DNA of 64,000 nucleotides from contig CAYFPJ010000002.1 in NCBI GenBank assembly GCA_964344965.1, positions 1,068 to 65,067 of the forward strand, written 5' to 3'. This document shows positions 48,538 to 64,000 of this stretch, in pieces; positions within the stretch are counted from its first letter, which is position 1; each line of letters begins with the position of its first letter. Source of the stretch: an uncultured Gammaproteobacteria bacterium (lineage in GTDB: Bacteria > Patescibacteriota > Patescibacteriia > Magasanikbacterales > UBA922). A program made the translations under genes and the position numbers. Under the pieces are notes generated by a model. That model was not told the DNA's origin and ran no database searches. It saw only the letters and a program-made list of their open reading frames with translations.

Positions 48538-49578
48538 TTAGACCTCAAAATCCAAACCATCAATCGAAGTCAGCATCTCCTTGATCTCATCAGTAGTCAT
48601 CAGCTGCTGATCTTTGGAAGAGTACTCTTTGAATTCAGCGCCTTTGGTGCCTGGATACTCAATAGATTTGATGTCATTAAAAATTTCATAACCCACATCG
48701 GGACGCAAAATATACATATCTTCTGTCTCAAGAGCATTTTCTGATTCAGCCAGGCTAAGCAGCTTCTCATGTTGTCTTTCACCAGCTCTCCGACCAATTA
48801 TCTTGGTCTCTATATCTTTTGGCAAATCATTTTTTTCCTTTACTATCTCTAGGACTGACTGCGCTAGGTCACCAATAGTTGCCACCGGCATCTTGAGAAT
48901 AAAAATCTCTTGACCTCTGGTCATGGTACTAGCCTTAAAAATGAGATCCACAGCTTGGTGAGTACTCATAAAAAATCTGGTCATATCTGCATCTGTCACA
49001 GTCACTGGTCCACCTTCCTTGATCTGTCTGATAAATAATGGCAAGACAGAACCACGAGAACCAAGGACATTACCAAAGCGAACCGAACAAAACTTGGTTT
49101 GCTTTTTTCCTTTATAAAAAAATGATGATAAGATTAATTTCTCTGCCAAAAGCTTGGTACAGCCCATCACATTGGTCGGATCAGCAGCCTTATCTGTGGA
49201 GATACTGACTACTTTGTCCACTTTGTTGGCAAAAGCACAAGAAATGATGTTTTGCACACCACCGACATTGGTCTTCACTGCCTCAAAAGGATTGAGTTCA
49301 CATGACACAACATGCTTGAGAGCCGCTGTATGAAAGACGATGTCTACATTTTCCATTGCCATCATCAGACGCTCCTTATCACGCACATCTCCAACCAAAA
49401 ATCTCATTCTAGGATCTCTGCCCAATCTATGTGCTAATTCAAACTGTTTGGTTTCATCACGACTGTAGACCCTCACCTGTCTGACACCAGCTTCGAGAAG
49501 CTGTCTTGTTATCTCCGAACCAATGGAGCCTGTACCTCCAGTTACCAAAACTGTTTTGTTTTTGAATTGTTCTTTCAT
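48538..49578 (-). CDS. UDP-N-acetylglucosamine 4,6-dehydratase (PseB/FlaA1/CapD family)
   Basis: VLVTGGTGSIGSE and the CapD-type extended SDR fold. Confidence 0.8.
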   Translation of the reverse strand: MKEQFKNKTVLVTGGTGSIGSEITRQLLEAGVRQVRVYSRDETKQFELAHRLGRDPRMRFLVGDVRDKERLMMAMENVDIVFHTAALKHVVSCELNPFEAVKTNVGGVQNIISCAFANKVDKVVSISTDKAADPTNVMGCTKLLAEKLILSSFFYKGKKQTKFCSVRFGNVLGSRGSVLPLFIRQIKEGGPVTVTDADMTRFFMSTHQAVDLIFKASTMTRGQEIFILKMPVATIGDLAQSVLEIVKEKNDLPKDIETKIIGRRAGERQHEKLLSLAESENALETEDMYILRPDVGYEIFNDIKSIEYPGTKGAEFKEYSSKDQQLMTTDEIKEMLTSIDGLDFEV

Positions 49579-49714
49579 ATAATTTTTAGTTTACCTTCTA
49601 GATATTACACATCCAGACCTGAAGGAGGAAAAATATATCTAATTGTTTGAGCGCCATTGCTTGCGACTCTTGGTTGGCGCCAAACAATTAGATATATTTT
49701 TACGACTGAAGTGG

Positions 49715-50578
49715 TTATTTATAAAAAATTAAATATTTTTGATACATTTTTTTAATCCCCAAGTCTAGATCATATTCCAAATCTTGTCCAATAATATTCT
49801 TCAATTTACTGCCATCTCCTATTACTGAAAATTTTTCAAAAACAGATTGGCCAAATCTATAATTTAATTTTTTGTATGTCACTTTTTCCACCAACCCAAT
49901 AAGATCCAAAATCGATACCCCCTCACCTGTACACAAATTGAAAACTTCGATTTTTTCCTTTTGGTCAAACTCTACAATAGCATTCAACAATCTTGATACA
50001 TCTCCCACAAATATATAATCCCTCACTTGTCCTCCATCACCATTGATAATAAATTGTTGATTACTGATCAATGCTAATAATATATAATTCAAAATTCCTT
50101 TATTTTTGACATCACCATAGACATTTGCCAATCTAGCTATACACAACTTTATATCATTCCTATCAACAAATTCTTTAAGCAATTTTTCTTCTTCATATTT
50201 TGCTTTTTCATAATCAGTCTTAGGTTCTGGCACCACTTCTTCATCATGTATTTGCGATGAATCTGGATAGACTAGTAAAGTGGATAAATATACGATCTTT
50301 TTCAAACCATTTGCTGATTCCAGAGCCATCATAATATTCCCCATCCGAACACTACTTGGCTGCACGGCTATCACCACCACTTCTATGTCATCCAAAATAT
50401 TTTTTAGCGACAAAAAATCATTATTTAAATCTATTTTTTGATAACAAACCCCTTCTATCGCTTCATTTTTAGATAATTCAGTAGCATGCACGGCTACCAC
50501 TTCTTTTCCACAATTCACCAAGTCACGACACAAATACCCACCGACAAATCCTGTACCACCTATCACAAGTACCTGCAT
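49715..50578 (-). CDS. NAD-dependent epimerase/dehydratase family protein
   Basis: VLVIGGTGFVGGYL Rossmann motif. Confidence 0.6.
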   Translation of the reverse strand: MQVLVIGGTGFVGGYLCRDLVNCGKEVVAVHATELSKNEAIEGVCYQKIDLNNDFLSLKNILDDIEVVVIAVQPSSVRMGNIMMALESANGLKKIVYLSTLLVYPDSSQIHDEEVVPEPKTDYEKAKYEEEKLLKEFVDRNDIKLCIARLANVYGDVKNKGILNYILLALISNQQFIINGDGGQVRDYIFVGDVSRLLNAIVEFDQKEKIEVFNLCTGEGVSILDLIGLVEKVTYKKLNYRFGQSVFEKFSVIGDGSKLKNIIGQDLEYDLDLGIKKMYQKYLIFYK

Positions 50579-50579
50579 A

Positions 50580-51731
50580 CTAATATGTTATTACTTTTTG
50601 GATTGGAGGAAGATCAATGGTTTCCAAAATCTCAACTATCTGCTTGGCTGTATTACCACGGTCATAAGGATTTTTTCCTTTTTTGACACTAGCGATAAAT
50701 TCCTCATCAGTCAAGGCCTTCACGATCCCCTTCTCAATAGCCTCTTGGTCGTTTGGCACATCAATCACATTGACCCCTCGTTCACGACGCTGCTGTCTGG
50801 TCCCTATATTGACAGTGGGTAGACCAAACGAAGGAGCCTCATGAATACCAGAACTAGAATTGCCAACCAAAACGTCAGCCACGTTCAACAGCCGTAAAAA
50901 ATCTTCATAAACTATGTGGGGCAAGACATGAATTCCTGCTTTTTTGATAGATTCAATTATTCTTCGACCGCCAGCATCGTGATTGGAATAAATGGCCAAA
51001 ACTTCCAAATCATGAGTCTCTTTCGTTTTTTTGATAGCAGCAATGCTTTTGTCTATTTGTTGTTCTACCTCTTCTACTTCAGTAGTAACCGGGTGTTGCA
51101 AAAATATAGCTAATTTTTTGGCCAGGTCAATGTCGTATTTCTTGCTAATATCCTCTTTGCTTGGATAATCTATTGATTTGATAGTATCAAGACTAGGACT
51201 ACCAACCAAAAATACATAGCTGGGGTCTTCTCCCAATTTTACAATTCTCTCCACACTTTGCTTGGTAGCAGCGAAATGAAGATGAGCAAACTTGGTACAA
51301 GCATGACGCAGTATTTCATCTATCGTGCCAGTAACTTCCCCACCCTGCATATGAGCAACATGGATATTCAAATGGGTGCCTGTGATAGCAGCAGCAAGAT
51401 GTGCCCCTAGATCAAATCCACAAAATACTATATCTGGCTTCAGCTTTGGGATAATGTCTGCCATGCCTATCAAGGCCTTACCCATAGCCCTAACCATCGA
51501 AGCACCATCATCCGGATCATCCTCTGCAAATATAGGAAGGGTGGCATCTATTTCAAAACCATCTTCCTTGACCACTTTTTCTGTTTCACCAAAATTTTTG
51601 AGAAGGTGAGCACCGGTGATAAGCAAAAGAAGCTCTAGCTCTTCGCTAGCCTGCACAGCTTTCATGATTGGCTTTAGTCTACTATAATCAGCTCGCCTCT
51701 CAGTAACAAATAAAATTCTTCTTTTAGACAT
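50580..51731 (-). CDS. neuC: UDP-N-acetylglucosamine 2-epimerase, hydrolysing (NeuC/LegG-like)
   Basis: Epimerase_2 fold with the typical HVEAGLRS-like (HVAHMQGGEV) and HPVT blocks. Confidence 0.8.
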   Translation of the reverse strand: MSKRRILFVTERRADYSRLKPIMKAVQASEELELLLLITGAHLLKNFGETEKVVKEDGFEIDATLPIFAEDDPDDGASMVRAMGKALIGMADIIPKLKPDIVFCGFDLGAHLAAAITGTHLNIHVAHMQGGEVTGTIDEILRHACTKFAHLHFAATKQSVERIVKLGEDPSYVFLVGSPSLDTIKSIDYPSKEDISKKYDIDLAKKLAIFLQHPVTTEVEEVEQQIDKSIAAIKKTKETHDLEVLAIYSNHDAGGRRIIESIKKAGIHVLPHIVYEDFLRLLNVADVLVGNSSSGIHEAPSFGLPTVNIGTRQQRRERGVNVIDVPNDQEAIEKGIVKALTDEEFIASVKKGKNPYDRGNTAKQIVEILETIDLPPIQKVITY

Positions 51732-51733
51732 AT

Positions 51734-52783
51734 TTATAAATCTATATCATTATATTTTAAATGTGTATCTATAGGGATGTCATTTCTTACGATCTTACCA
51801 AGCAACCCCTCATATTCTCCTGCCTTTATCTCTCCAGTACCCGGACGCTTCACCCAGATATTTTCTTTTGTTAATTTTTCGCCTTCTTTTATATCTTGTA
51901 TTGTCACTACAGTTGCAAAAGCAAAATCTATTGTCACTTGTTCCTCTTTGGCTGCTTCTTTTTTGCCACCACGCATCTTGAATATCTCTCCTGAATCAAA
52001 AATCAAATTCTCAAGAGCTTCAGGATCCATGGAGTTGACAATGTCTGGGCCAGGCCTATCCATACTATCTGTGAAATGCCTCTCGAGGATATCAGCTCCA
52101 AGAGCTGTAGCAGCCAAACAAGCCAAATTGGATACTGTGTGGTCGGACAATCCTACGACAGCATTGGAGAATTCTTTTTGCAATTCTTGCATCCCCCCTA
52201 GTCGAACTAAGTGCGGAGGCGTGGGGTAGAGATTGGTGGTGTGGAGAAGCGCATAAGGAACATTATATTTCTCTACTATTTCTACAGCCTTCTTGACGCT
52301 TGCTATATTATTCATGCCTGTACTTATGATCATGGGCTTACCAAACCCTGCAATGTGCTCGACAAGAGGATAATTATTGCACTCCCCTGATCCAATTTTA
52401 TAGGCAAGCACTCCCATTCGCTCCAGACGATCAGCTGCTGCTCTAGAAAATGGGGTACTAAGAAAAATCATCCCTTTTCCTTCTACATATTCTTTCAATT
52501 TTATTTCATCTTCTTCATTAAGAGCACATTTCTCCATGATGTCATAAATTGAATCTGTAGAATTGCCTGGGATAACTTTTTTGGCCTCTTTGCTCATCTC
52601 ATCCTCTATCACATGGGTCTGGTGCTTGATCACTTCTGCTCCAGCCTGATGTGCAGCATCGACAATGGCAAAAGCCACTTCCAAATCACCTTCATGATTG
52701 ATCCCAATATCGGGAATAACAAAAGTAGGAAAGTCTGGACCGATCTTCCTGTCTCCAATTTGAATGAAATTATTTTTTGGCAT
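51734..52783 (-). CDS. neuB: N-acetylneuraminate (nonulosonate) synthase, NeuB family
   Basis: [23 protein letters not shown], and the SDHT-like block (LSDHTVS), plus a C-terminal SAF domain. Confidence 0.85.
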
Positions 52784-52831
52784 AAAACAGCAATAGATTT
52801 CTCTCCAATTTTTATTTTAATAAAGTTAATA

Positions 52832-52902
52832 AATAGTAGGATATTTTTGTCAGCAACAGTCTGCTCCTTTTAGATTTTGATGGCTAAAATATCCTACTAT
52901 TT
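52832..52902. other. conserved-loop / variable-stem hairpin, copy 2
   Basis: Stem AATAGTAGGATATTT / AAATATCCTACTATT encloses TTGTCAGCAACAGTCTGCTCCTTTTAGATTTTGATGGCTAA. Confidence 0.7.
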
Positions 52903-52943
52903 ATTGATGGTCACAAAAATTAGTTAATGTTCATTATTAAAAT

Positions 52944-53942
52944 CTACAAATCTTTAAAGCCATCCAAAAAACCAAGGATACGTTCATCTTCCTGAAATGT
53001 ATACGGAAATTCTTTCTTTCCTTCTACAGCCTGGAGAAAATCACCAATCTCCGCTTCATACGCTTCTTCACCTGTATTGTATTGTCCCACCTTCTTCCCG
53101 CTGTCAAGATCAATTACCTCAGTATCTCCTTTTTCTGTACCAAAAATACTAATTTTTTTACCCAACCAATCCCAATCTATGGTCCCTTCTGTCCCAATTA
53201 TTTTCAAAGTTCTGCCAGCCTTTCTGTTTATGAGATCAATCATCATATTCCCCACTATACCATTTTCAAATTGTGCGGTGGCAGCATAAATATCATCTGC
53301 TGTCATTTCTAAATCTGATATTTTTCCACGCAAGCCGTAAACTTTCTTTACTGAACTACTGAACATGTCTATCAGCCAGACCAGCTCATAGGCAAACATC
53401 TCAGGACAACCCCCAGTATCCTTCTTGGCAAAGTAAACTTCTTTGTAATCTTCATACGGATGCCAATCTGGCAGATATTGCCCAAGATAATGATTAAAAG
53501 ACAGTGGCTTACCTATTCTTCCTGACAAAATTAACTCTTTAATTCTTTTGACAGCAGGAAAATAACGGAATGTACAAGACGGTGCTGCCACAAAATCATC
53601 ACCAAGCAAAGGATAAAGCTCTTGGTAACCGTCAGGCTTGGTAGTCACTTCTACAAAAAAATGCTTTTTCTTTTTGGCAATCTGTAAAAAATACTGATGA
53701 TGCAAATTTGGCGGAGTAGAAATGATGTAGGCATCTGGATTTATCTCTTGCTCTGCTTCTTCAAAATTTACAAAAGTTTTTATCCCGTATTCTTTGCCAA
53801 CCTCTGTACTTCTCTCTTCTGAAGGGTCAAACCCAAAAATCTGCTCCGCTGGAATTTGATGAAATTTCAAATTTCTAATGCGGCGCTTACCCATCGAACC
53901 AAGTCCAATGATAAGAAATTTTTTATCTGTTTTCACTGGCAT
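52944..53942 (-). CDS. Gfo/Idh/MocA-family oxidoreductase
   Basis: N-terminal KFLIIGLGSMGKRRIRNL Rossmann motif. Confidence 0.75.
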   Translation of the reverse strand: MPVKTDKKFLIIGLGSMGKRRIRNLKFHQIPAEQIFGFDPSEERSTEVGKEYGIKTFVNFEEAEQEINPDAYIISTPPNLHHQYFLQIAKKKKHFFVEVTTKPDGYQELYPLLGDDFVAAPSCTFRYFPAVKRIKELILSGRIGKPLSFNHYLGQYLPDWHPYEDYKEVYFAKKDTGGCPEMFAYELVWLIDMFSSSVKKVYGLRGKISDLEMTADDIYAATAQFENGIVGNMMIDLINRKAGRTLKIIGTEGTIDWDWLGKKISIFGTEKGDTEVIDLDSGKKVGQYNTGEEAYEAEIGDFLQAVEGKKEFPYTFQEDERILGFLDGFKDL

Positions 53943-54873
53943 ATTTCTTTAAATCTTCTATTATTTCTACATCGTGTATTGCCTCATCTACGTTGGAAAA
54001 GTAATCACCCTTTTGGAGAGAATCTATAAAAAAATCAATCTCTCTCTCATACATATTGTTGCGTTCCAGTTCTATTTTTTCACTCAAAATAACACTCTCA
54101 TGATTCTTGACAACAATCGTATTGTTATCGCTATTCCAGACTAGAGTACCCTGGTCCCCAGCTATCTCCAAATATCTACCATAGGGAACGCGGATATAAT
54201 CTTGGTGAATTGATACTATCACTCCAGAATCACTAACTAAAACACTCTCTGCACAATCCTCAGTATCTATCTCCAAACTTGAAATTTTGTCTAGATAACA
54301 AATTTTGGCTTGCAACTTTTCTCCCAATAGCCAGGCCGGATAGTTTATTTCATGCACTAAGTCAAGCATTACTCCCCCGCCATCATCCTTACTAGATGAA
54401 TAACACTGGCGATAATCTCGCTCTCTCCACTGGAGCAAATCCTGTCCAACTGAAACGCGCATATAATAAATACGACCCAAAATTTTATCCTTCAAAATTT
54501 TCTTAATGTGGAGAAATGGTTCAAAAAAATGAAAATTATAAGCTACCCAAGAACTAATTTCTTTTTGCTTCATTTCTTCCGCCAGCTCTGTCAACATTTT
54601 GATGTTATTTGAAAGAGGCTTTTCAATCAACAGTGCTTTTGGATTGAGCTTAATACATTTTTCAATTGTTTCCACGTGCTTCGATGTCTCGTTGGTAATA
54701 AAAAATGCGTCAAAAGGACCATGCTTGGCTAGCTCATCCCAAGAAGAGACAGTTGTAATGTTTGACAAATCAGTTCGCTTGGATAAAACAACAGTATCGA
54801 CATCTTTATAAAACTGCAAATTCTCTAGATGCCTTTTTCCAATTGAACCAAATCCAATTATGCCAATTTTCAT
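53923..54873 (-). CDS. Gfo/Idh/MocA-family oxidoreductase
   Basis: N-terminal MKIGIIGFGSIGKRHLENL. Confidence 0.75.
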   Translation of the reverse strand: MKIGIIGFGSIGKRHLENLQFYKDVDTVVLSKRTDLSNITTVSSWDELAKHGPFDAFFITNETSKHVETIEKCIKLNPKALLIEKPLSNNIKMLTELAEEMKQKEISSWVAYNFHFFEPFLHIKKILKDKILGRIYYMRVSVGQDLLQWRERDYRQCYSSSKDDGGGVMLDLVHEINYPAWLLGEKLQAKICYLDKISSLEIDTEDCAESVLVSDSGVIVSIHQDYIRVPYGRYLEIAGDQGTLVWNSDNNTIVVKNHESVILSEKIELERNNMYEREIDFFIDSLQKGDYFSNVDEAIHDVEIIEDLKKYASENR

Positions 54874-55619
54874 AGACCTTTTTTTTCTTGTTCTAATTCT
54901 AGAATTCTATCTTTCATTTTTTCTTTATTTTGATAAAAAAGCTCAGCCATGGCCCACTCTTCTGGATCATCTAGGTCAACCGAACGCCATTTTGGACAAA
55001 CCACTGCTTTGGTCTTCTTGGTAATCACCAATTTTTCTTTCAATAAAGCTCCCATCTCAATGATATAAACAAAACAACCATTTAGTAGATAGGCCTTCTC
55101 CCAAGTCTGTGTATTATTAGAATGTGTCTCTAATCCATTGACAAGAACTGTGTCATTTTCTGTGCTAAGATGATATAGCTTAGGATGAGTCGGGCAGACT
55201 GTCAAAACTGTTGTGGCATCAGTGTCTTGCATCATCTGCCAACAATCTTCAATATCTTTAATTTCTCGCAAAAGAGAAGTGGTTTGTAAAATCATCAAAT
55301 GTGTCGGCTCATATCCTTCATCATTTTTTAATTTTTCCAAAGTATAGAGAATACTGTCGACGACATTGGCACTATCCGATGCCAAATGTTCAGGACGCAA
55401 AAATGGTACATCTGCTCCATACTTTTTTGCCACCTTAGCGATCTCTTCTGAATCAGTGTCTACGACTACTCTATCGATAAATGGCACGGACAAAGCCTGC
55501 TCAATAGCATAAGCAATCAAAGGTTTACCCAAAAAATCCTTGATATTTTTACCAGGAATTCTTTTGGAGCCAGCCCGAGCTGGGATGTAGGCTAGTATAC
55601 GCTGCTCTTTCTTATCCAT
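54870..55619 (-). CDS. neuA: CMP-nonulosonate synthetase (acylneuraminate cytidylyltransferase, NeuA family)
   Basis: LAYIPARAGSKRIPGKNIKDFLGKPLIAYAIE. Confidence 0.8.
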   Translation of the reverse strand: MDKKEQRILAYIPARAGSKRIPGKNIKDFLGKPLIAYAIEQALSVPFIDRVVVDTDSEEIAKVAKKYGADVPFLRPEHLASDSANVVDSILYTLEKLKNDEGYEPTHLMILQTTSLLREIKDIEDCWQMMQDTDATTVLTVCPTHPKLYHLSTENDTVLVNGLETHSNNTQTWEKAYLLNGCFVYIIEMGALLKEKLVITKKTKAVVCPKWRSVDLDDPEEWAMAELFYQNKEKMKDRILELEQEKKGL

Positions 55620-55620
55620 A

Positions 55621-56655
55621 TTATTCTAAATCTTCTTTAAGAATATGTTCGCCATTTTTAATATTTCTTTTTACTTTTTTGTCAACCAAAGTGTCAAATT
55701 CTTCGATAGATATATGCCCATCTTCAGGCCGATATGGACGAATAGACATAAGATCATCTGGCTCGAGCACTGATCCGACTGACAAATCTTTGTGTGCACA
55801 AATTGCCTTATGAGCCCAAGTCTTGTATTGCAATACTTCATCATCAATCTGATAATTTCTAGTTATTTGATAAATCTCATCTACATCTGCTAGCATCTTT
55901 TTGAACTGATCTGGAACAATACCAACTGAAATATCAAGACTCTCAAATTTTGGTTTGACCTTATGTTCTGGAAGACAGATATGCTTTTCCATAATCGTCA
56001 CTTCCTCCATGCCTGCTGCTACCAAGATAGCATTGGTCCCAGCCACATGATCAGAATACCCAAAGTTAAATTCTGGAAATTTGGACTTCATTTTCTCGAT
56101 CAACCTCAAATTGGCCAGACGTGGCGGTGTTGGATAAATGGTTGTACAGTGAAATATAATTAACTGATCAGCGTAATTTTGGTATTTTTCTAAAACCCGC
56201 ATTACTTCTTCTTCTTGCAAAAGACCAAGAGAAAGTAAAACTGGCTTGCCTGTGCCAAGAGCCATATCTATCATTCGATAGTTATTGCTATCACCAGACC
56301 CAATTTTTAAGACTGGCATCCCAGCTTCGGCTAGCTCTACCAAATCATACTCATTGTGGGTAGTAGCAAAACAAGTGATTCCTTTTTCTTTCCCATACTT
56401 CATGATTTCAAGAAAATCACTTTTACTCAACGCTCTTTGACTAAGACGCTCTCGCCAATGAACGTCTATCTCACTAACTACATTTTCTGGAGTAATACTT
56501 TGGAATTTTAAAAGTCTAATACCCGCCTTTATGGCTTCATCTACGAATTTTAAACCTACTTCTTTTTCACCAAATGTCAAAACACCAGCCTCTGCGATTA
56601 CTTCTGGTTTTTTGTTTGATCCAACTATAATACCCCTATCTAATTCTATATTCAT
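55621..56655 (-). CDS. NeuB-family nonulosonate synthase, second paralog
   Basis: KIGSGDSNNY, YSDHVAG, and a C-terminal SAF domain. Confidence 0.75.
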   Translation of the reverse strand: MNIELDRGIIVGSNKKPEVIAEAGVLTFGEKEVGLKFVDEAIKAGIRLLKFQSITPENVVSEIDVHWRERLSQRALSKSDFLEIMKYGKEKGITCFATTHNEYDLVELAEAGMPVLKIGSGDSNNYRMIDMALGTGKPVLLSLGLLQEEEVMRVLEKYQNYADQLIIFHCTTIYPTPPRLANLRLIEKMKSKFPEFNFGYSDHVAGTNAILVAAGMEEVTIMEKHICLPEHKVKPKFESLDISVGIVPDQFKKMLADVDEIYQITRNYQIDDEVLQYKTWAHKAICAHKDLSVGSVLEPDDLMSIRPYRPEDGHISIEEFDTLVDKKVKRNIKNGEHILKEDLE

Positions 56656-56823: not shown

Positions 56824-57996
56824 TTATTTCTTCTGCTCCCACTTTATTTTTGGAGTAATAGTATCTTTATTAATATTATCCCTGTAATCCATAATCTTCT
56901 TCAACATACTATCCACCAATACATCAGACAATTTATTTGGCTTCAGCCCAAGATCCAACAACTTGGTGTGCACAGGATTAAAGTAATGCTCTTCTGCTTC
57001 TTTGCGAGGATTTTCAATATGCTCAATTCTCGGATTCAACCCAAGCTTTTGTCCGGCACTTTGAACCATTTCTGCCAATTCTTTGACAGAAAATAACTCT
57101 GTAAACTGGTTGTAAATTCTAAATTCCCCCCTATCTGCAGGATTCATAGCGGCAATTTCAACACATTGCAAGGTGTCTACAATATTTAAGTATCCTCTAG
57201 TCTGCCCACCTTTACCGTAAGGAGTAATCGGCATATCAGCCACAGCCTGGACACAAAAACGATTAAGAGCAGTCCCGAATACTGCATCATAATGTAAGCT
57301 GGTGGCCAGACGCTCATCTTTTTTTGTTTCTTCGGTCTCAATACCATAGACAATACCCTGATTCAAATCTGTAGCTCTGAGATCCCAAATCTTACAGGCA
57401 AAATAAATATTGTTACTATCATGCACTTTAGATAAGTGATAAAAAGAACCTGGATTTTTTGGGAAAAGCATCCGATCAGTCCTTCCTTTGTGCTCAATAT
57501 CAATGTACCCTTCTTCAATATCAATATTTGGTGTACCGTACTCTCCCATGGTTCCAAGCTTTACCAGATGAGCATCTGGACAATTTCTCTTCATGGCAAA
57601 CAAGACGTTTAGAGTGCCCATGACATTATTCATCTGAGTGTTGACAGCAGTAGAATTGGTCATCATGGAGTAAGGAGCTGAGGGCTGTTCACCATAGTGA
57701 ACAATGACATCAGGCATGAATTGGACAATAAACTTATTGACAAACCTCTTGTTCAATAGATCTCCAATGTATGGAGTGATTGTCTTTCCGGAAACTTCTT
57801 TCCAAACTTTTATTCTTTCGTGCAATGTAGATATTGGGATAAGAGGCTCTACCCCTTCTTCCAGTTCCCACTTTCGTTTGTTAAAATTATCTACTACAGC
57901 CACTTCATGACCTTTGTTTGAAAAGTACATTGCTGTTGGCCATCCCAGATAACCATCTCCTCCCAAAATAAGAATCTTCATATATTCAATATACAA
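56824..57996 (-). CDS. sqdB: UDP-sulfoquinovose synthase (SqdB/SQD1)
   Basis: Near-colinear match to plant/cyanobacterial SQD1. Shared blocks include ILGGDGYLGW (SQD1 GGDGYCGW), HYGEQPSAPYSM, HLVKLGTMGEYGTPNIDIEEGYI, FYHLSKVHDS, ATDLNQG, AVFGTALNRFCVQA and PYGKGGQTRGYL. Confidence 0.85.
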   Translation of the reverse strand: MYIEYMKILILGGDGYLGWPTAMYFSNKGHEVAVVDNFNKRKWELEEGVEPLIPISTLHERIKVWKEVSGKTITPYIGDLLNKRFVNKFIVQFMPDVIVHYGEQPSAPYSMMTNSTAVNTQMNNVMGTLNVLFAMKRNCPDAHLVKLGTMGEYGTPNIDIEEGYIDIEHKGRTDRMLFPKNPGSFYHLSKVHDSNNIYFACKIWDLRATDLNQGIVYGIETEETKKDERLATSLHYDAVFGTALNRFCVQAVADMPITPYGKGGQTRGYLNIVDTLQCVEIAAMNPADRGEFRIYNQFTELFSVKELAEMVQSAGQKLGLNPRIEHIENPRKEAEEHYFNPVHTKLLDLGLKPNKLSDVLVDSMLKKIMDYRDNINKDTITPKIKWEQKK

Positions 57997-58009
57997 AATA
58001 GTAATTAAA

Positions 58010-59287
58010 TTAATTAGTTTTTTTTTCTACATCACAAATGACTCCACAAGCTACAGTATTATTACTCATCTCATCGATCAAAATGAAATTGCCAGTATTT
58101 TTGTTTTCACTATATTTGTCAAACAACAAAGGATTGCGTGCGGAAATAGAAACAGCACATATATCATTTATATACATACTATTTCCACCAGATTTTTTTT
58201 CCAAACTATCAACATCTAGGTAATAATAAATATTGTCTACACAGCATCTTTGTGTCTGTGTGGTATGCTTTATCAAATAGCTTCTTTCCAGTTTTTGCAT
58301 TGGCTCTTTGTCAAACCAAAATAATAACGCATCAATTCTCTTATTTATTTTCGGGCTATTAGAATTCTTGACTATCATATCTCCCCTACTGACATCCACT
58401 TCCTCTGTCAATGTCAATACGACAGATTCAGGGTCAGATGCTTCTTCCTTTTCTCTATCAGCTACAAAAATAGACTTGACATGTGTACTAGTGCCAGATG
58501 GTAATATAGTGACTTGGTCACCTTTTTTTATAGACCCTCCCCCTACTTTACCAGCATAGCCTCTCCAGCTTCCTTCTCCTCTCACCACGTATTGAACCGG
58601 AAAACGAAATACATCAAGGTTACCTTGTGTTGAATGAGGTACGTCTTCCAAGAACTCCAAGACGGTCTTACCGCTAAACCAATTCATATTTTCACCACGG
58701 TTGACTACCATATCGCCTTTAAGAGCTGACACTGGGATGAAGTCAACATCTTCAACACCTAAACCAGAGAGATAGATAAGGAAGTCTTTTTTTACTTTAT
58801 CAAAAGCAAATTGGTCATATTGTACCATATCCATCTTATTTATCAATATCACTATGTGCTTTACACCTAGACTAGCTGCAATGTAGATGTGCCTCTTTGA
58901 TTGCTTTGTTACGCCCTTCTTTACATCAATCAAAAATAAGGCGACATCAGCACGAGATGCTCCAGTAGCCATATTTCTAGTATATTGTTCATGACCAGGA
59001 ACATCCGCCACTATAATCCTTCTTTTTGGGGTGTTTAGGTATCTGTAAGCCACATCTATTGTAATTCCCTGTTCACGCTCAGCAGATAAGCCGTCGGTAA
59101 ATAGAGAAAAATCTATATCTTCACTCGCCCCTCTAGTGCTATCCTTTTTTAATTTAGAAAGTTGATCTTCATATATTGCCCCACAATCAAAAAACAATCG
59201 GCCTATCAAAGTTGATTTACCATCATCGACACTGCCTGAAGTCGCTATCCTCAAAAGTTCTGAATTTTGTGCATCTTTTATGTGCAT
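58010..59287 (-). CDS. cysN: sulfate adenylyltransferase subunit 1 (GTPase; not fused to an APS-kinase domain)
   Basis: ATSGSVDDGKSTLIGRL, DVPGHEQY, and the NKMD G4 motif. Confidence 0.85.
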   Translation of the reverse strand: MHIKDAQNSELLRIATSGSVDDGKSTLIGRLFFDCGAIYEDQLSKLKKDSTRGASEDIDFSLFTDGLSAEREQGITIDVAYRYLNTPKRRIIVADVPGHEQYTRNMATGASRADVALFLIDVKKGVTKQSKRHIYIAASLGVKHIVILINKMDMVQYDQFAFDKVKKDFLIYLSGLGVEDVDFIPVSALKGDMVVNRGENMNWFSGKTVLEFLEDVPHSTQGNLDVFRFPVQYVVRGEGSWRGYAGKVGGGSIKKGDQVTILPSGTSTHVKSIFVADREKEEASDPESVVLTLTEEVDVSRGDMIVKNSNSPKINKRIDALLFWFDKEPMQKLERSYLIKHTTQTQRCCVDNIYYYLDVDSLEKKSGGNSMYINDICAVSISARNPLLFDKYSENKNTGNFILIDEMSNNTVACGVICDVEKKTN

Positions 59288-59299
59288 ATTTATTTTATA

Positions 59300-59542
59300 T
59301 TACTCTTCTTTTGCCACTCCCCAATCTATGCTATTCCAAAACCGTTCATGACCATAATAAAGGATCATCTTGAAGAAAACCTCAATAGACCCAATACTAA
59401 AAGCAATAAGAAAGTCTTTTGTCAATAAATAAGAAATTGTTACTGTTGCCAAAGTAGCAATGATTCTCCAACTGATTGTTTTAGTGAAAGTTCTAATCTG
59501 TTTTTCTTTTTTACTCATATTTTTTTGGTTACTCGCGATCAT
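59300..59542 (-). CDS. DUF2061-family small membrane protein
   Basis: 80 aa with two TM segments; this family is typically encoded in sulfate-activation loci. Confidence 0.45.
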   Translation of the reverse strand: MIASNQKNMSKKEKQIRTFTKTISWRIIATLATVTISYLLTKDFLIAFSIGSIEVFFKMILYYGHERFWNSIDWGVAKEE

Positions 59543-59688
59543 TATTACACTGAAGAGGAGCGGAACAAAGTATTATTCCTTTTTTACCTGACCACTGTGT
59601 GAGTCAAAGCGAGTTTGGTAAGGTAAAAAAGGAATAATACTTTGTGGAGTGAAAAAATCCTGTAAATACAATGAATATTTACAAATAT

Positions 59689-60591
59689 TCAAAAATATCC
59701 TTCCTTTTTCTTTTGTTCCATCGAAGATGATGAGCCGTGATCAATAGCTCTCGTCTCTCTTTCAGAATTTTTTGCCAGATACAATTCTTCAATAATGCCA
59801 TCTATGGTCGTAGCCAAAGAAGGTACACATCCAGTCGATGGCGAACAACCCAGAGTCCTGTAGCGAAACATATCTTCTATAATTTCTTCATCACCAGCTT
59901 TGACATATTTATCAAGACGTAAGTATACTCCTCTTTTTTTGATAACTCTTTGTTTTTTGGAAAAATAAAGAGGAACTATTTCGATATTTTCTTTTTTTAT
60001 ATATTCCCAAATGTCTACCTCTGTCCAGTCTGAAAGTGGGAAAACTCTCATCGATTGCCCCTCATGCAGGCGAGAATTATAAAGATGCCAGAGCTCTGGT
60101 CGTTGATTCTTAGGATCCCACACTCCCCCCTCACCACGAACAGAGAAAATTCTTTCCTTAGCTCTTGATTTTTCTTCATCTCTTCTCGCACCACCAAAAG
60201 CTAGATCAAAATTATGTATATCAAGTGCTTCCAGGAGGGGTTTGGTTTTTTTGTAATATATGTACTCCTCTGTATGAGCTTGTTCTGGATTCATGTTCAT
60301 AGCTATCACTTCCTCATTTTTATGGACTATGAGATCTACTCCTATTTTTTTGGTATAGTAATCTCGAAATTCAATCATCTCTGGAAATTTATAACCTGTG
60401 TCTATATGAAGAAGAGGAAAAGGAATCTTACCAGGATAAAATGCTTTTTGCACTAATCTAAGCAATACTGAAGAATCCTTCCCTATCGAATAAAGTAAGA
60501 CTGGATTCTTACATTCGGCCACTGCTTCACGAATGATAAAAATACTTTCCATCTCAAGTTGTTCCAAATAACTCAAACTACGCTGTGACAT
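59689..60591 (-). CDS. cysD: sulfate adenylyltransferase subunit 2 (the track ORF extends to 60654; the likely start is MSQRS at 60591)
   Basis: Collinear with E. coli CysD (LEQLEMESIFIIREAV...LYSIGKDSSVLL...FGGARRDEEKSRAKERI...KKKEGYF). Confidence 0.9.
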   Translation of the reverse strand: MSQRSLSYLEQLEMESIFIIREAVAECKNPVLLYSIGKDSSVLLRLVQKAFYPGKIPFPLLHIDTGYKFPEMIEFRDYYTKKIGVDLIVHKNEEVIAMNMNPEQAHTEEYIYYKKTKPLLEALDIHNFDLAFGGARRDEEKSRAKERIFSVRGEGGVWDPKNQRPELWHLYNSRLHEGQSMRVFPLSDWTEVDIWEYIKKENIEIVPLYFSKKQRVIKKRGVYLRLDKYVKAGDEEIIEDMFRYRTLGCSPSTGCVPSLATTIDGIIEELYLAKNSERETRAIDHGSSSSMEQKKKEGYF

Positions 60592-60595
60592 AAAA

Positions 60596-61252
60596 TTATC
60601 TAGTATGTAAACCACATTCACTAGTGGTATCATTTGTATTATGAAAACGACCAAACCTCTCTTCGCTGGTGTTACTTTTCTTTGTGCATGGCTGACAACC
60701 TAAAGATGGATAGCCTTGATCATATAGTGGATGATAGCTGAGATTTCTTTCCTTTATGTATTGCCAGATATCATCTTTGGTCCAAAAAACAATTGGGTTT
60801 ATCTTGGTGATATCTTCTTCTACTTCTGTAATTTCTGTATCCTTGCGACTTTCTGCCTCATCTCTTCGCAGACCAGTAACCCAACTATCATGTGCTTCAA
60901 TTACTGGTTTTATAGCTGGTTTTTTCATAGCACAACACTTGTACTTTCCATCCTTGATCATCTCATCACCAAAAGAATTCTCAATATCTTCTTTTTCTTC
61001 TGGAGTTGGTCTAATCCATTTAAAGTTCATGCCTGTTTCTTGTACTAGCTGGTCTGCAAAATCTAGTGTCTCTTTGAATTCATAGCCTGTATCAATTCCA
61101 ACAAAATTCGCTTGGGGGTCGACACTCATTACCAAATCTACAATCACTCTTGAATCTTTACCAAAAGAACAAGTAACAAAAACTTTCTTATTTTCTTCAA
61201 ATAGATCTTTGATAATTGTTTTACTTTGTTTGATCTTTTCGGCAAGTTTCAT
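60596..61252 (-). CDS. cysH: APS-reductase-type phosphoadenosine phosphosulfate reductase family protein (Fe-S type)
   Basis: PAPS_reduct fold (FGKDS), C-terminal ECGLH, and the Cys pairs KCCAMK and GCQPC that characterise APS rather than PAPS reductases. Confidence 0.8.
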   Translation of the reverse strand: MKLAEKIKQSKTIIKDLFEENKKVFVTCSFGKDSRVIVDLVMSVDPQANFVGIDTGYEFKETLDFADQLVQETGMNFKWIRPTPEEKEDIENSFGDEMIKDGKYKCCAMKKPAIKPVIEAHDSWVTGLRRDEAESRKDTEITEVEEDITKINPIVFWTKDDIWQYIKERNLSYHPLYDQGYPSLGCQPCTKKSNTSEERFGRFHNTNDTTSECGLHTR

Positions 61253-61255
61253 AAT

Positions 61256-61969
61256 TTATGTGTTATTGTTCTTTTGTCTATATTCCAAAAAAATTTTTAT
61301 CGAATCAAGATCCTCTGGATAATCAACATCCATTGAGTAAAATTGATCTATTACTAAAGGATAGTTTCTTTTACCTTCCATTTTCTTTTCACTAGTCAGT
61401 GTCTCGAAACTAGACAACCAGAGGTTGGCTGCTTTATAAAATTTTGGCTTTTGCTTATTTTCTACATTTTGGTAATGAAGTTCGTCTTGCCAAAAGACAA
61501 TCGTACCATCTTCTTTGATCTCTCGAATATTATAAGGATGATTCAAGGTATCCACTTCTGATACTGCCACTACTGAGTCTGCTTTTTTGTCTATAGCTAG
61601 ACTCACCGCTGTGTCAATCTGCTTGGTGTCGATAAGAGGTGAAGCAGCTTGTAACAAAATTACATAGTCGGCTTTATAACCTTCGTCTTTTTCCAATTTT
61701 TCGACAGTATAAACCATGGTATCAATGACTGGACTATCATCTCTAGCCAACTCTGCTGGGCGTATAAATGGTACATCTGCTCCATGCTCTTTCGCAACTC
61801 TAGCAATTTCATCATCATCAGTAGAGACAATGACGCGATCAACCAATGAAGATTTTTTGGCTGCTTCAATTGACCAAGTCAAAAGAGGTTTGCCTTGCAA
61901 CAAAGCTAGGTTTTTACCAGGAAACCTTTTACTACCCCCTCGTGCCGGGATTATTACCACTACATTCAT
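61256..61969 (-). CDS. NeuA-family cytidylyltransferase, second paralog
   Basis: VVIIPARGGSKRFPGKNLALLQGKPLLTWSIE. Confidence 0.75.
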   Translation of the reverse strand: MNVVVIIPARGGSKRFPGKNLALLQGKPLLTWSIEAAKKSSLVDRVIVSTDDDEIARVAKEHGADVPFIRPAELARDDSPVIDTMVYTVEKLEKDEGYKADYVILLQAASPLIDTKQIDTAVSLAIDKKADSVVAVSEVDTLNHPYNIREIKEDGTIVFWQDELHYQNVENKQKPKFYKAANLWLSSFETLTSEKKMEGKRNYPLVIDQFYSMDVDYPEDLDSIKIFLEYRQKNNNT

Positions 61970-61978
61970 ATATTCAAA

Positions 61979-62980
61979 TTATTTTTGAGCGATAAATCTC
62001 AATTTTAGACCAATACCAAGTTCATTCATTTTGTTTTCCAATATCTTTTCATTTTCAGGATCCAATATAAAATCCCTGAATTTTTTTGGCAAAAAATCAT
62101 ATATTTCATCACCAAAGGGATCCAAAAATTGAAAACTATTAATCATTGAATCCTTCCCTGTATAGCATGTGTTCACTTCAATATTTTCATTCTTCCAACC
62201 AAGATTTGAGAATAAGTATCTCAAAGTATCTTCTGAAAAATAGGAAAGATGCAGACGGCCAGTAAATGTACGAGACATTTCATGTAGTGTCATACAGACA
62301 AGACTCTGTACATTAGGGCAAATTCCCAAAAATATTCCACCTGGCTTTAAAATACGATAAATATCTTTGACGACATCAATCGGTTCAGGCAAATGTTCGA
62401 TCACACCAAACATAGTGACAAGATCAAAACTATTATCCTCAAAACCACACTCATGCAACAATTTTCTCTCTACCTTTACTCCATACATCTCTTCAGCATA
62501 CTTAGCAGTCCTTTCATTTAGCTCCAGACCAAGTGTGTCATAACCCCTCTCTTTGGCTGTGTGCAAAAATCCTCCCACGGAACATCCGATATCAAGCACT
62601 CTGCCAGATGGAACCTGATCTTGAATTTTGTCTAAAAAATAATTATATAATTTACCTCTAATCTCCTGATGCTTTTCAGACGATAAAAAATCAAAACCAG
62701 CATCATTGGTGTCAGATTCTTCATTGTACTGCTTTACTACCGCTTCTTCATTAGCTTGGGGATTGACATAGACATGTGCACAATTACTACAACGCACAAA
62801 ATCAAAGCCATTTTTTGTAAAAAGCACAGTGAAATTTGGTGAATGACAAAGTAAACAATTTATTTTTTTTACCAAGTGTTCAAAGACCTTACCAGTCTTT
62901 GGGTCAACTAGTTTGTCCAATTCTTTATCACGTTCTTCAAAAAATCTTTCTCCTTTTGTCTGTTTATCAAATGTACTCAT
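61979..62980 (-). CDS. class-I SAM-dependent methyltransferase with an N-terminal Cys4 zinc-ribbon
   Basis: CLLCHS...CSNCAH ribbon, then VLDIGCSVGGF motif I and LKPGG. Confidence 0.65.
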   Translation of the reverse strand: MSTFDKQTKGERFFEERDKELDKLVDPKTGKVFEHLVKKINCLLCHSPNFTVLFTKNGFDFVRCSNCAHVYVNPQANEEAVVKQYNEESDTNDAGFDFLSSEKHQEIRGKLYNYFLDKIQDQVPSGRVLDIGCSVGGFLHTAKERGYDTLGLELNERTAKYAEEMYGVKVERKLLHECGFEDNSFDLVTMFGVIEHLPEPIDVVKDIYRILKPGGIFLGICPNVQSLVCMTLHEMSRTFTGRLHLSYFSEDTLRYLFSNLGWKNENIEVNTCYTGKDSMINSFQFLDPFGDEIYDFLPKKFRDFILDPENEKILENKMNELGIGLKLRFIAQK

Positions 62981-62990
62981 ACGTATAAAA

Positions 62991-64000
62991 TTAATAAGTT
63001 ATTCTTTTGCGTAAAAGTTTTTTGTTTATTTCTAATTTTTTAATAATTTTTATAATTTGTTCCGAGACATCACCTTCTCCAAGGCGATTACCGCACTTGC
63101 CCAATCCTTTTATATAACCACTGTCTTTCAACACAAAGTGTATTTTCTTTACTATATCTTCTTTGTCAGCCAAGGCATCAACCACATTCTTTTCTCTTGC
63201 TCTACCAAGTTGCCTATTACCAATATTTATTGCTGGCAACCTGAGGTAAGGAGCCTCCACCAATGCACATGATGAATTGCCTATCAAAAACTGGGCATTA
63301 TCAAGAAGACTCAAAAAATCCAGATGCTCAATATTTTTATAGATCAAAAACTGTGGATCATCCTGTACTTCTTCTATGGCATTGACCACTTTTTCATACC
63401 CAGGATCTGAGCATGGGTATATAATGAAAGCTCTATTTTCTGATGACGATTTGACCGCCTCGATGATGGAGTGCATGTATTCTCCATTCTTATCTGGGGA
63501 CTCAAATGTGTCTGGATGGGTCAGTATTATACTATATTTTTCGCCTTTTTTCAAGCCGTATTTAGGTGCTATTTTTTCGATGGTTGGGTACATTTTTTTG
63601 ACAATTCTATCTATATATAGAGATCCTACGGTATGAATACGCCATTTTTCTTCTCCCATTTTTTTTATTCTTTCTGTTGAATCATCTGATTCAGGAAAGT
63701 GTAGGTGGGCTAGCTTGGTAATGGCATGTCTCTGAATATCATCTATATTTCCAGATACATCACCACCTTGGGTGTGAGCAATAACAACACCCAGATTAAG
63801 AGCAGCAAGAGCCATCACCAGGTGCTCCCCCCTATCCCCGTGAACAAAAAGGATGTCTGGACTTAATTCAGATAATAATTTTGCAGATTTTTGGAGACAG
63901 ACGCCAAGATTTTCTGTACGTGCAATCGGTGAGTCGACTCGTCCAGCTCCCATTTCAATAATTTCTAATGTAGAATTTGGGAAGAGCGATTGCGCTTCTT
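62991..64000 (-). CDS. hydrolysing UDP-GlcNAc 2-epimerase (NeuC-like), second paralog, N-terminus beyond the window edge
   Basis: Epimerase_2 C-terminal blocks (HTQGGDVSG, HPDTF). The in-frame reading continues upstream of the listed Met to coordinate 64000. Confidence 0.7.
   Translation of the reverse strand, partial: EAQSLFPNSTLEIIEMGAGRVDSPIARTENLGVCLQKSAKLLSELSPDILFVHGDRGEHLVMALAALNLGVVIAHTQGGDVSGNIDDIQRHAITKLAHLHFPESDDSTERIKKMGEEKWRIHTVGSLYIDRIVKKMYPTIEKIAPKYGLKKGEKYSIILTHPDTFESPDKNGEYMHSIIEAVKSSSENRAFIIYPCSDPGYEKVVNAIEEVQDDPQFLIYKNIEHLDFLSLLDNAQFLIGNSSCALVEAPYLRLPAINIGNRQLGRAREKNVVDALADKEDIVKKIHFVLKDSGYIKGLGKCGNRLGEGDVSEQIIKIIKKLEINKKLLRKRITY

Follow-up and report, generated by a model that had tools for sequence, protein, structure and literature searches.

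Genes for UDP-sulfoquinovose formation recur with a divergent nonulosonic acid synthase across distant bacterial phyla: a putative route to C-sulfonated nonulosonic acids

This work deals with a sulfo-sugar gene module located at positions 56824-61252 of a 64,000-nucleotide stretch of contig CAYFPJ010000002.1 (GenBank assembly GCA_964344965.1), which is referred to below as the window. The module comprises sqdB, cysN, a DUF2061 gene, cysD and cysH, and lies among genes of nonulosonic acid (NulO) biosynthesis. Profile, motif and SQD1-alignment results, together with negative tblastn searches, confirmed at the sequence level the predicted route from sulfate through adenosine 5'-phosphosulfate (APS) and sulfite to UDP-sulfoquinovose. 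Furthermore, we lean towards the view that this UDP-sulfoquinovose feeds dedicated NeuC, NeuB and NeuA enzymes, giving a CMP-activated 9-deoxy-9-sulfo nonulosonic acid. The more general proposal seems to us evenly balanced: that a C-sulfonated nonulosonic acid, 9-deoxy-9-sulfo-Kdn or -Neu5Ac with possible O-methylation, is made by many candidate-phyla-radiation bacteria and by some Alphaproteobacteria and marine bacteria, through a dedicated five-step pathway whose specificity would rest on a new subfamily of NulO synthases with a sulfonate pocket of Trp, Arg and Lys.

Results

The sulfo-sugar module

The five open reading frames (ORFs) of the arrangement sqdB-cysN-DUF2061-cysD-cysH, which had been proposed in an initial annotation of the window, were all found, and all of them lie on the minus strand. 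In the SQD1 mechanism sulfite is added to UDP-glucose via a 4-keto-5,6-ene intermediate, and SqdB (56824..57981, starting with the ATG at 57981; the ORF list began at TTG 57996), the strongest of the module's enzyme assignments, almost certainly catalyzes the same reaction. It aligned with Arabidopsis SQD1 (PDB 1qrr/1i24) without gaps over residues 2-382, with 58.3% identity (E = 2.6e-154), in agreement with the colinearity with the plant enzyme noted initially, and it keeps the motifs GTMGEYG (Thr145) and YHLSKVH (Tyr182, His183 and Lys186) plus GGDGYLG at the NAD site. Catalytic roles have been assigned to Thr145, Tyr182, His183 and Lys186 in the SQD1 family (PMC4388408). On the curated model NF041015, SqdB scored 479 bits over positions 1-384 of 384, missing the cutoff of 575. 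The runner-up family was GalE with 37 bits, so that there is no competing family, and SqdB is not a generic NAD-dependent epimerase, the possibility that had been raised against the SqdB assignment.

CysN (58010..59287; TIGR02034, 508 bits vs a cutoff of 336) and CysD (59689..60591; TIGR02039, 416 vs 396.6, and NF003587, 433 vs 195) both exceeded the subfamily hidden Markov model cutoffs for the GTPase and the small subunit, respectively, of the sulfate adenylyltransferase CysDN. The cysD start is the ATG at 60591; the ORF list ran on to a TTG at 60654. The 632-position bifunctional CysN/CysC model matched the 425-aa CysN over no more than its positions 16-433, so that CysN lacks an APS-kinase (CysC) domain. 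CysH (60596..61252; Pfam PAPS_reduct, 155 bits) is predicted to be a thioredoxin-dependent [4Fe-4S] APS reductase; it missed the cutoff of TIGR02055 APS_reductase (160.8 bits vs 235.3) and passed that of the broader NF002537 (188 vs 154). Its KCC...GCQPC and ECGLH motifs, the latter with the catalytic cysteine, aligned with the Fe-S cysteines of the APS reductases of Pseudomonas aeruginosa (2goy) and Mycobacterium tuberculosis (7lhr), as expected from the CC and CxxC pairs pointed out initially, whereas 3'-phosphoadenosine 5'-phosphosulfate (PAPS) reductases (6vpu) lack these cluster cysteines. A tblastn search of the window detected no APS kinase, Sat-type sulfurylase, sulfotransferase, sulfite reductase or CysQ, and no sulfite reductase, sirohaem or cysteine synthase genes were found in the window by tblastn or by Pfam searches of its ORFs. 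Thus, the absence of an APS kinase claimed in the initial annotation was borne out, no sulfite reductase accompanies the cys genes in the window, and the proposed order of CysDN, CysH and SqdB was upheld by profile, structure-sequence and motif evidence.

The remaining gene of the module encodes a small predicted membrane protein (59300..59542; DUF2061, PF09834, 75.6 bits), whose homologues are stand-alone small membrane proteins. In Lishizhenia tianjinensis (FPAS01000001.1; L175:6001-12216) DUF2061 is the first gene of an operon with the order DUF2061-cysH-cysD-cysN-sulfite reductase-cobA-sirohaem synthase. DUF2061 recurs as a companion of cysH/cysDN operons and may have a conserved role in sulfate assimilation. 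The window shares the cysH, cysD, cysN and DUF2061 genes with this assimilatory operon, but it lacks the sulfite reductase and sirohaem genes and has sqdB after cysN, so that sulfite would be handed on instead of being an intermediate to sulfide. The block looks like the front of a Lishizhenia-type operon whose sulfite-consuming half has been swapped for sqdB.

Nonulosonic acid genes surrounding the module

The region 55.6-64 kb is a single co-directional string of minus-strand genes with intergenic gaps of 1-168 bp, in the transcription order NeuC1, methyltransferase, NeuA1, cysH, cysD, DUF2061, cysN, sqdB and NeuB1, followed by a second NulO set. Same-strand NulO genes border the module at distances of 3-168 bp. 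When 49-64 kb was scanned for promoters and terminators, the counts were at the level of shuffled sequence.

NeuC1 (62991..64000) is a predicted hydrolysing UDP-sugar 2-epimerase (Pfam Epimerase_2, 209 bits) whose 5' end lies beyond the window. The full gene, of 388 aa, continues along the contig as far as about 64157 in window numbering (L001:5131-6297, L001 being the window's own contig, found as an exact match in the Logan assemblies ERR2281800-2). The full-length protein scored 327 on TIGR03568 NeuC_NnaA (cutoff 236) and just 106 on the wecB model; it retains the catalytic motifs GDR and DD..RH, and its top PDB match was LegG (5zlr). Next come a 333-aa S-adenosylmethionine (SAM)-dependent methyltransferase with an N-terminal Cys-rich stretch (61979..62980; Pfam Methyltransf_23/11/25) and NeuA1 (61256..61969), a CMP-nonulosonate/CMP-Kdo-type cytidylyltransferase (Pfam CTP_transf_3, 113 bits) whose top NCBIfam match was PseF (149, under the cutoff of 205.7). 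On the module's opposite side lies NeuB1 (55621..56655; Pfam NeuB, 144 bits, and SAF), the predicted nonulosonate synthase.

The second set (48538-55619, minus strand) has a more ordinary appearance. It encodes NeuA2, two GFO/IDH/MocA oxidoreductases, NeuB2 (381 bits, slightly under the NeuB equivalog cutoff of 400), NeuC2, an epimerase and a PseB-like dehydratase. The initial annotation had placed the module between two sets of NeuC/NeuB/NeuA paralogs. NulO genes do stand on both sides (NeuC, methyltransferase and NeuA upstream; NeuB, then NeuA, two GFO oxidoreductases, NeuB, NeuC and epimerase downstream), but they are not two complete flanking sets, and the arrangement is better read as a module nested inside one dedicated set (NeuC1, NeuA1 and NeuB1), with the second, ordinary set downstream.

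Beyond window position 64000, upstream of NeuC1 (L001:1-5129), the contig carries a gene for a 458-aa TagF-like (Glyphos_transf) protein directly adjoining NeuC1, as well as genes for a 513-aa sulfatase-family (perhaps LTA-synthase-like) protein, two uncharacterised proteins and an Fe-ADH.

Recurrence of SqdB with NeuC, NeuB and NeuA

A comparison of synteny in related genomes, as suggested in the initial annotation, identified about 15 loci (linked loci, below) that pair SqdB with its own NeuC, NeuB and NeuA; most are from candidate-phyla-radiation bacteria, and the others are from Alphaproteobacteria and marine contigs. The four genes adjoin one another in the window (L001), L004, L006, L008, L009, L011, L012, L089 and the P0070 locus, and within the closest SqdB clade the association was present in each neighbourhood that was looked up. 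The gene order is TagF-like-NeuC-methyltransferase-NeuA-SqdB-NeuB, without cys genes, in L004 (Parcubacteria), and TagF-like-NeuC-methyltransferase-NeuA-cysH-cysD-cysN-SqdB-NeuB in both L008 (1.03 Mb contig ERZ26692762 ctg84335) and L009 (Falkowbacteria). It is NeuC-epimerase-SqdB-NeuB-cysD-cysN::cysH fusion-NeuA in L006 (Magasanikbacteria), NeuC-NeuA-2-hydroxyacid dehydrogenase-cysH-SqdB-NeuB-TagF-like in L089, NeuB-NeuC-2-hydroxyacid dehydrogenase-NeuA-SqdB in L011 and L012 (metagenome-assembled genomes of Rhodospirillaceae, 62% GC), and NeuB-NeuC-NeuA-radical SAM-SqdB in the P0070 locus. The methyltransferase occupies the same cassette position in L004, L008, L009, L091 and L171, and the TagF-like gene recurs in seven cassettes; it also adjoins an ordinary NeuB in L061. 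A sequence search of the PDB with the TagF-like transferase gave no matches. The NeuC proteins of the linked loci form a subtype of their own, with many consistent substitutions (e.g. RAEYG to RGGFG) and the catalytic Asp/Arg/His retained. The core conserved across phyla is made up of SqdB, NeuC, NeuB and NeuA, and includes no UDP-sugar glycosyltransferase.

In a genome scan, about 75 other SqdB loci, from Solirubrobacterales, Chloroflexi, Acidobacteria, cyanobacteria and Alicyclobacillus, had no NeuB, NeuC or NeuA within 10 kb, with one partial exception (L061), where a NeuB lacking the signature described below lies 4-5 kb away on the opposite strand. Because gene order in the linked loci is variable, their GC content ranges from 26 to 70%, and NeuBs without the signature reside in the same loci as those that carry it, these comparisons indicate that the association is functional, and not frozen synteny or a lineage marker.

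Roughly half of the loci also have genes for the supply of sulfite: cysH is present in L006, L008, L009, L089 and L172, in some of them together with cysDN. The fusion in L006 (L006:13170-15137; CAZEYK010000001.1) joins CysN to a PAPS_reduct (CysH) domain in a protein of 655 aa, and would couple the formation of APS directly to its reduction to sulfite.

With respect to transferases, no SqdX-like ORF was found within 4 kb of sqdB, either in the window or in any of the 15 linked loci, in line with the lack of an sqdX/sqdD-type gene nearby that had been reported. The sole GT4 of the window lies 22 kb from sqdB and scored 84 bits on the SqdX profile. In cyanobacterial and Alicyclobacillus loci an SqdX-like gene lies directly downstream of sqdB. 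Adjacency of SqdX was nevertheless discarded as a general contrast with the linked loci, since a close SqdX homologue was found within 4 kb in only 5 of 77 non-linked SqdB loci.

Two sets of SqdB residues were also considered and set aside. Arg101 (SQD1 numbering), essential in Agl3 (PMC4388408), is Pro in the SqdB of the window; it was dropped as a sign of changed specificity, Pro being present in most bacterial SqdBs, non-linked ones included. K35, P46, S228 and H230 set the linked SqdBs apart from plant, cyanobacterial and actinobacterial SqdBs, but these residues follow phylogeny and not NulO linkage, since they are shared with the glycosyltransferase-linked P0036 clade and with some Chloroflexi.

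It is worth recording other genes of these loci. Directly after SqdB-NeuB, L008 (L008:12219-17731) carries a complete PAPS module, made up of a sulfotransferase, an APS kinase, a 946-aa PK/ATP-sulfurylase/APS-kinase fusion and a CysQ-like phosphatase, and thus this small genome seems to hold routes for both C-sulfonation and O-sulfation at one locus. Genes for B12-binding radical SAM proteins adjoin the cassettes in L004 (1580-3001), L172 (9904-11442), L174 (6302-8000 and 13259-14647) and the P0070 locus, and D-2-hydroxyacid dehydrogenases recur inside the SqdB-NulO cassettes; both may serve in further tailoring (C-methylation, redox) of the putative sulfo-sugar. L089 (L089:1-21182) is unusually dense in NulO genes, with four NeuB paralogues, three cytidylyltransferases and two NeuCs in 21 kb, and includes a synthase without the SAF domain beside an HAD phosphatase, which would fit a 9-phosphate-type route.

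A divergent NeuB subfamily

NeuB1 has the TIM barrel and the SAF/antifreeze-like domain, and the metal, phosphoenolpyruvate and catalytic residues of NulO synthases, yet it scored far under the equivalog cutoffs (NeuB_NnaB, 168 vs 400; PseI, 123 vs 340). An AlphaFold2 model (predicted local distance difference test score, 93.4) gave the Neisseria meningitidis NeuB as its top fold match (TM 0.83), followed by PseI and then by KDO8P synthases.

Eight SqdB-linked NeuBs (six of candidate-phyla-radiation and two of alphaproteobacterial origin) were aligned with co-resident NeuBs and with the N. meningitidis enzyme; the residue numbering used here agrees with the published active-site list (PMC6795526). 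In all eight, a shorter W-x-x-R-(L/M/V)-(K/R/S)-x-(K/R) stands where the other NeuBs have the loop between beta2 and alpha2, ...IPGN74ADVSIYEIMERC; moreover, T110-P111-F112 is replaced by T-(T/S/A)-His, and F288 by Trp. The comparison NeuBs do not have these changes. The linked NeuBs retain E25, K53, Q55, K129, Y186, S213, H215, E234, H236, D247 and R314. In NeuB1 the motif reads H66-W67-x-x-R70-x-x-x-R74, with F112 changed to H and F288 to W, and in the model H66, W67, R70 and R74 lie on a short helix between beta2 and alpha2. Among the 120 best matches (90%-identity clusters) of a profile built from the linked NeuBs, 119 carry the motif.

KDO8P and DAH7P synthases use the beta2-alpha2 loop, with its KANRS/KPRS motif, to bind the aldose at its distal phosphate, and in sulfoquinovosidases the sulfonate is held by an Arg-Trp-Tyr triad. 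In the canonical NeuB, an Asn on this loop touches the C6-OH of ManNAc, and Arg314 binds the N-acetyl carbonyl (PMC11339185). NeuB1 should not be classed as a Neu5Ac or a Pse synthase, judging by the missed equivalog cutoffs, the replacement of the Asn74 loop and the presence of H at F112 and W at F288.

The association was also examined from the NeuB side. When the alignment of linked NeuBs served as the seed for scanning metagenomes, 80 NeuB loci were obtained, mostly generic, which make up a control set and not a census. Five of them have the motif, and four of these five adjoin SqdB, the fifth being on a contig of 4.2 kb; SqdB was found at none of the 75 motif-less loci (Fisher p = 3e-6). 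In a prospective test, four unseen NeuBs were chosen from different motif-bearing subtypes, and three of them had SqdB within 1-4 genes: L171 (TARA marine, 28% GC), L172 (from Hainich groundwater, with cysH and a TagF-like gene as well) and L174. Furthermore, 18 of the 59 closest SqdB clusters agree with a motif-NeuB cluster in the size of the longest contig, which implies that they are on the same contigs.

Host and remainder of the window

The nearest named SqdB and NeuB homologues are from Parcubacteria, Falkowbacteria, Magasanikbacteria and Kaiserbacteria. Sparse housekeeping genes, at about 38% GC, make up the remainder of the window, which encodes MurG, penicillin-binding protein 2, serine hydroxymethyltransferase, an AddA-like helicase, and type IV secretion and pilus ATPases. 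On the basis of these homologues and of the gene content, the host is likely a non-photosynthetic member of the candidate phyla radiation (Patescibacteria), which supports the non-photosynthetic lifestyle supposed initially.

Two further features lie outside the glycan region. A recombination ATPase gene, mgsA/rarA (17973-19408, minus strand), is split into an AAA part (18659-19408) and an MgsA_C part (17973-18527) in different frames, with the AAA_assoc_2 domain cut between them; a frameshift, a pseudogene or an assembly error could each account for it. At 1086-2102 (minus strand), a 338-aa ORF corresponds to the PPDK_N ATP-grasp domain alone (319 bits), without the phosphohistidine and PEP-utilising domains.

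Discussion

The initial annotation suggested that the sulfoquinovose was destined for a surface glycan or glycolipid rather than a photosynthetic sulfolipid. A module that merely stands between two NulO sets, with sulfoquinovose entering the glycan or glycolipid unchanged, probably undersells the locus: because a dedicated NulO set recurs with SqdB across distant phyla and the C6 subsite of its NeuB is remodelled, we propose sulfoquinovose as the precursor of a sulfonated nonulosonic acid. In the proposed pathway, CysD and CysN would adenylylate sulfate to APS and the Fe-S enzyme CysH would reduce APS to sulfite, after which SqdB would convert UDP-glucose and sulfite to UDP-6-deoxy-6-sulfo-glucose (UDP-sulfoquinovose); up to this point the steps are well supported by the sequence. 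Gene association and the active-site changes suggest that NeuC1 would then release UDP and yield a free 6-deoxy-6-sulfo-hexose. This would have the manno form ("sulforhamnose"), or, should UDP-GlcNAc be accepted by SqdBs of this clade, it would be the 2-acetamido analogue (via UDP-6-sulfo-QuiNAc). NeuB1 would condense the 6-sulfo-hexose with phosphoenolpyruvate to a 9-deoxy-9-sulfo-non-2-ulosonic acid of the Kdn or Neu5Ac type, and the Trp/Arg/Lys motif, which stands in place of the C6-hydroxyl loop, would hold the sulfonate, C6 being where the sulfonate would sit. NeuA1 would activate the sulfo-nonulosonate with CMP, the methyltransferase probably O-methylates the sugar, and the TagF-like protein encoded beyond the window end is a candidate transferase onto a surface glycan.

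The proposal follows the order of sialic-acid-type pathways, which run from a nucleotide sugar to a free 2-epimerised hexose, then through condensation with phosphoenolpyruvate to activation with CMP. The same three families (NeuC/LegG, NeuB/LegI and NeuA/LegF) appear here in the same logical order as in the sialic acid, Kdn and legionaminic acid pathways; the differences are that NeuB1 has lost the sugar-pocket Asn74 loop, F112 and F288, and that the enzyme upstream is SqdB instead of an amino-sugar dehydratase/aminotransferase set.

Several observations weigh against this proposal. The evidence for it consists of gene neighbourhoods and residue patterns. To our knowledge, NeuC-type enzymes act only on 2-acetamido sugars, via a 2-acetamidoglucal, and a 2-hydroxy UDP-sugar would be unprecedented; in addition, Arg314 is kept in the linked NeuBs, hinting at an N-acetylated substrate. 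The linked SqdBs have no residue pattern that distinguishes them from the glycosyltransferase-linked SqdB P0036, and their catalytic residues are those of SQD1. The fourth NeuB of the prospective test, in L173 (L173:8001-11867, on a 408 kb contig of GCA_964344935.1, 62% GC), lies in a NeuB-NeuC-2-hydroxyacid dehydrogenase-NeuA cassette with no SqdB within 8 kb, which means that the genome has its SqdB at some other place or that a different 6-anionic sugar feeds this cassette. L010 has NeuC and SqdB, and no NeuB on its 14.7 kb contig. Among the best 150 of 1.84 billion representatives there was no fusion of SqdB with NeuB, NeuC or NeuA, just NeuA-NeuB and NeuB-NeuC fusions. Finally, full-text literature searches found no C-sulfonated nonulosonic acid, O-sulfated sialic acids being the only sulfated forms described.

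In the same full-text searches neither sulfoquinovose nor sqdB was found linked to nonulosonic acids or to bacteria of the candidate phyla radiation: a paper on Haloquadratum mentions both sqdB and neuB and does not connect them, and a large NulO-synthase phylogeny is silent on sulfur and on the candidate-phyla-radiation phyla. While all the parts come from known families, there appears to be no earlier description of their combination or of the NeuB subfamily.

The main alternative, which we regard as possible if rather doubtful, is that UDP-sulfoquinovose is used directly by a glycosyltransferase, in which case sulfoquinovose and a separate nonulosonic acid, ordinary or modified in some other way, would be two residues of one repeat unit of a surface glycan or glycolipid. 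SqdB does resemble a standard UDP-sulfoquinovose synthase, the NeuC mechanism and the conserved Arg314 suit an ordinary 2-acetamido substrate, and GT2, GT4 and WbaP-like genes are present in the window at a distance of 15-22 kb. Sulfoquinovose is also a known residue of archaeal N-glycans: Agl3 of Sulfolobus acidocaldarius (PMC4388408) is, as we suggest for SqdB, a sulfoquinovose synthase serving a surface glycoconjugate and not a photosynthetic lipid, although there sulfoquinovose itself is the glycan residue, whereas here the partners are NulO enzymes and the host is a bacterium. Moreover, the sister SqdB P0036 (69% identical; L090:8161-13604, GCA_040960315.1) lies between a PMT_2 (GT-C) gene and a DUF2304-GT2 (GtrB-like) gene, followed by a GT4 and without NulO genes. 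This context resembles that of a route by which polyprenyl-phosphate-sulfoquinovose would decorate periplasmic glycans, and because of it direct use of sulfoquinovose probably exists in the SqdB clade. Nevertheless, two separate residues would be difficult to reconcile with a cross-phylum core devoid of any UDP-sugar glycosyltransferase, and would leave unexplained why the partner NeuB is always of the subfamily in which Trp/Arg/Lys replaces the C6 loop and why SqdB is missing from all 75 ordinary NeuB loci.

A cationic beta2-alpha2 loop would fit phosphate as well as sulfonate, and several of the motif-bearing NeuBs are annotated as "N-acylneuraminate-9-phosphate synthase" in the source databases. 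NeuB1 could in principle be a Neu5Ac-9-phosphate or Kdn-9-phosphate-type synthase whose loop binds a 6-phosphate, SqdB being unrelated to its substrate, but we consider this very unlikely, given that the cassettes encode neither a sugar kinase nor an HAD phosphatase, that the synthase lying beside an HAD hydrolase in L089 is a separate one of a different type, and that SqdB is the specific, recurring partner of the signature NeuB. The likeness to animal Neu5Ac-9-phosphate synthase and to KDO8P/DAH7P synthases would lie in the recognition by basic residues of an anion on the distal carbon of the aldose; unlike in those enzymes, the anion would be a C-sulfonate that remains in the product. Even less credible is that the cys genes serve general cysteine assimilation and SqdB membrane sulfoquinovosyldiacylglycerol (SQDG), their position in a glycan island being incidental. 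It is true that cysH-cysD-DUF2061-cysN resembles the start of the canonical assimilation operon of Lishizhenia, and that SqdB is 58% identical to the sulfolipid enzyme SQD1, belonging to the same family as the enzymes of the SQDG pathway in plants, cyanobacteria and rhizobia and keeping their catalytic Thr/Tyr/His/Lys. However, the place of the sulfite reductase is taken by sqdB in a window devoid of sulfite reductase, sirohaem and cysteine synthase genes, and same-strand NulO genes begin within 3-168 bp of the module. What also sets the locus apart from the SQDG pathway is the non-photosynthetic host, the linkage to sulfite-generating and NeuC/NeuB/NeuA genes, and the lack of an SqdX/SqdD-like transferase next to sqdB, in contrast to cyanobacterial and Alicyclobacillus loci. 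The Pro at the position of SQD1 Arg101 is a further difference from the plant enzyme, one shared with most bacterial SqdBs.

Even if the locus is read more cautiously, sulfate activation is put to an unusual, dedicated use here, in a self-contained sulfite-to-sulfoquinovose module of a reduced genome with no sulfite reductase in the window. The locus also offers a testable specificity code for NulO synthases, in which the beta2-alpha2 loop would read the C6 substituent of the aldose. If the proposed pathway is true, its product would be a new sialic-acid-like sugar with a stable carbon-sulfur bond, and a second biological fate of UDP-sulfoquinovose beyond sulfolipids and archaeal N-glycans. 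It would also constitute a new organosulfonate sink and source in groundwater and marine sulfur cycling. Candidate-phyla-radiation episymbionts depend on attachment to host cells, and their surface chemistry is almost unknown; on these ultra-small bacteria such a sugar would represent a strongly acidic surface decoration, probably resistant to sialidases and sulfatases.

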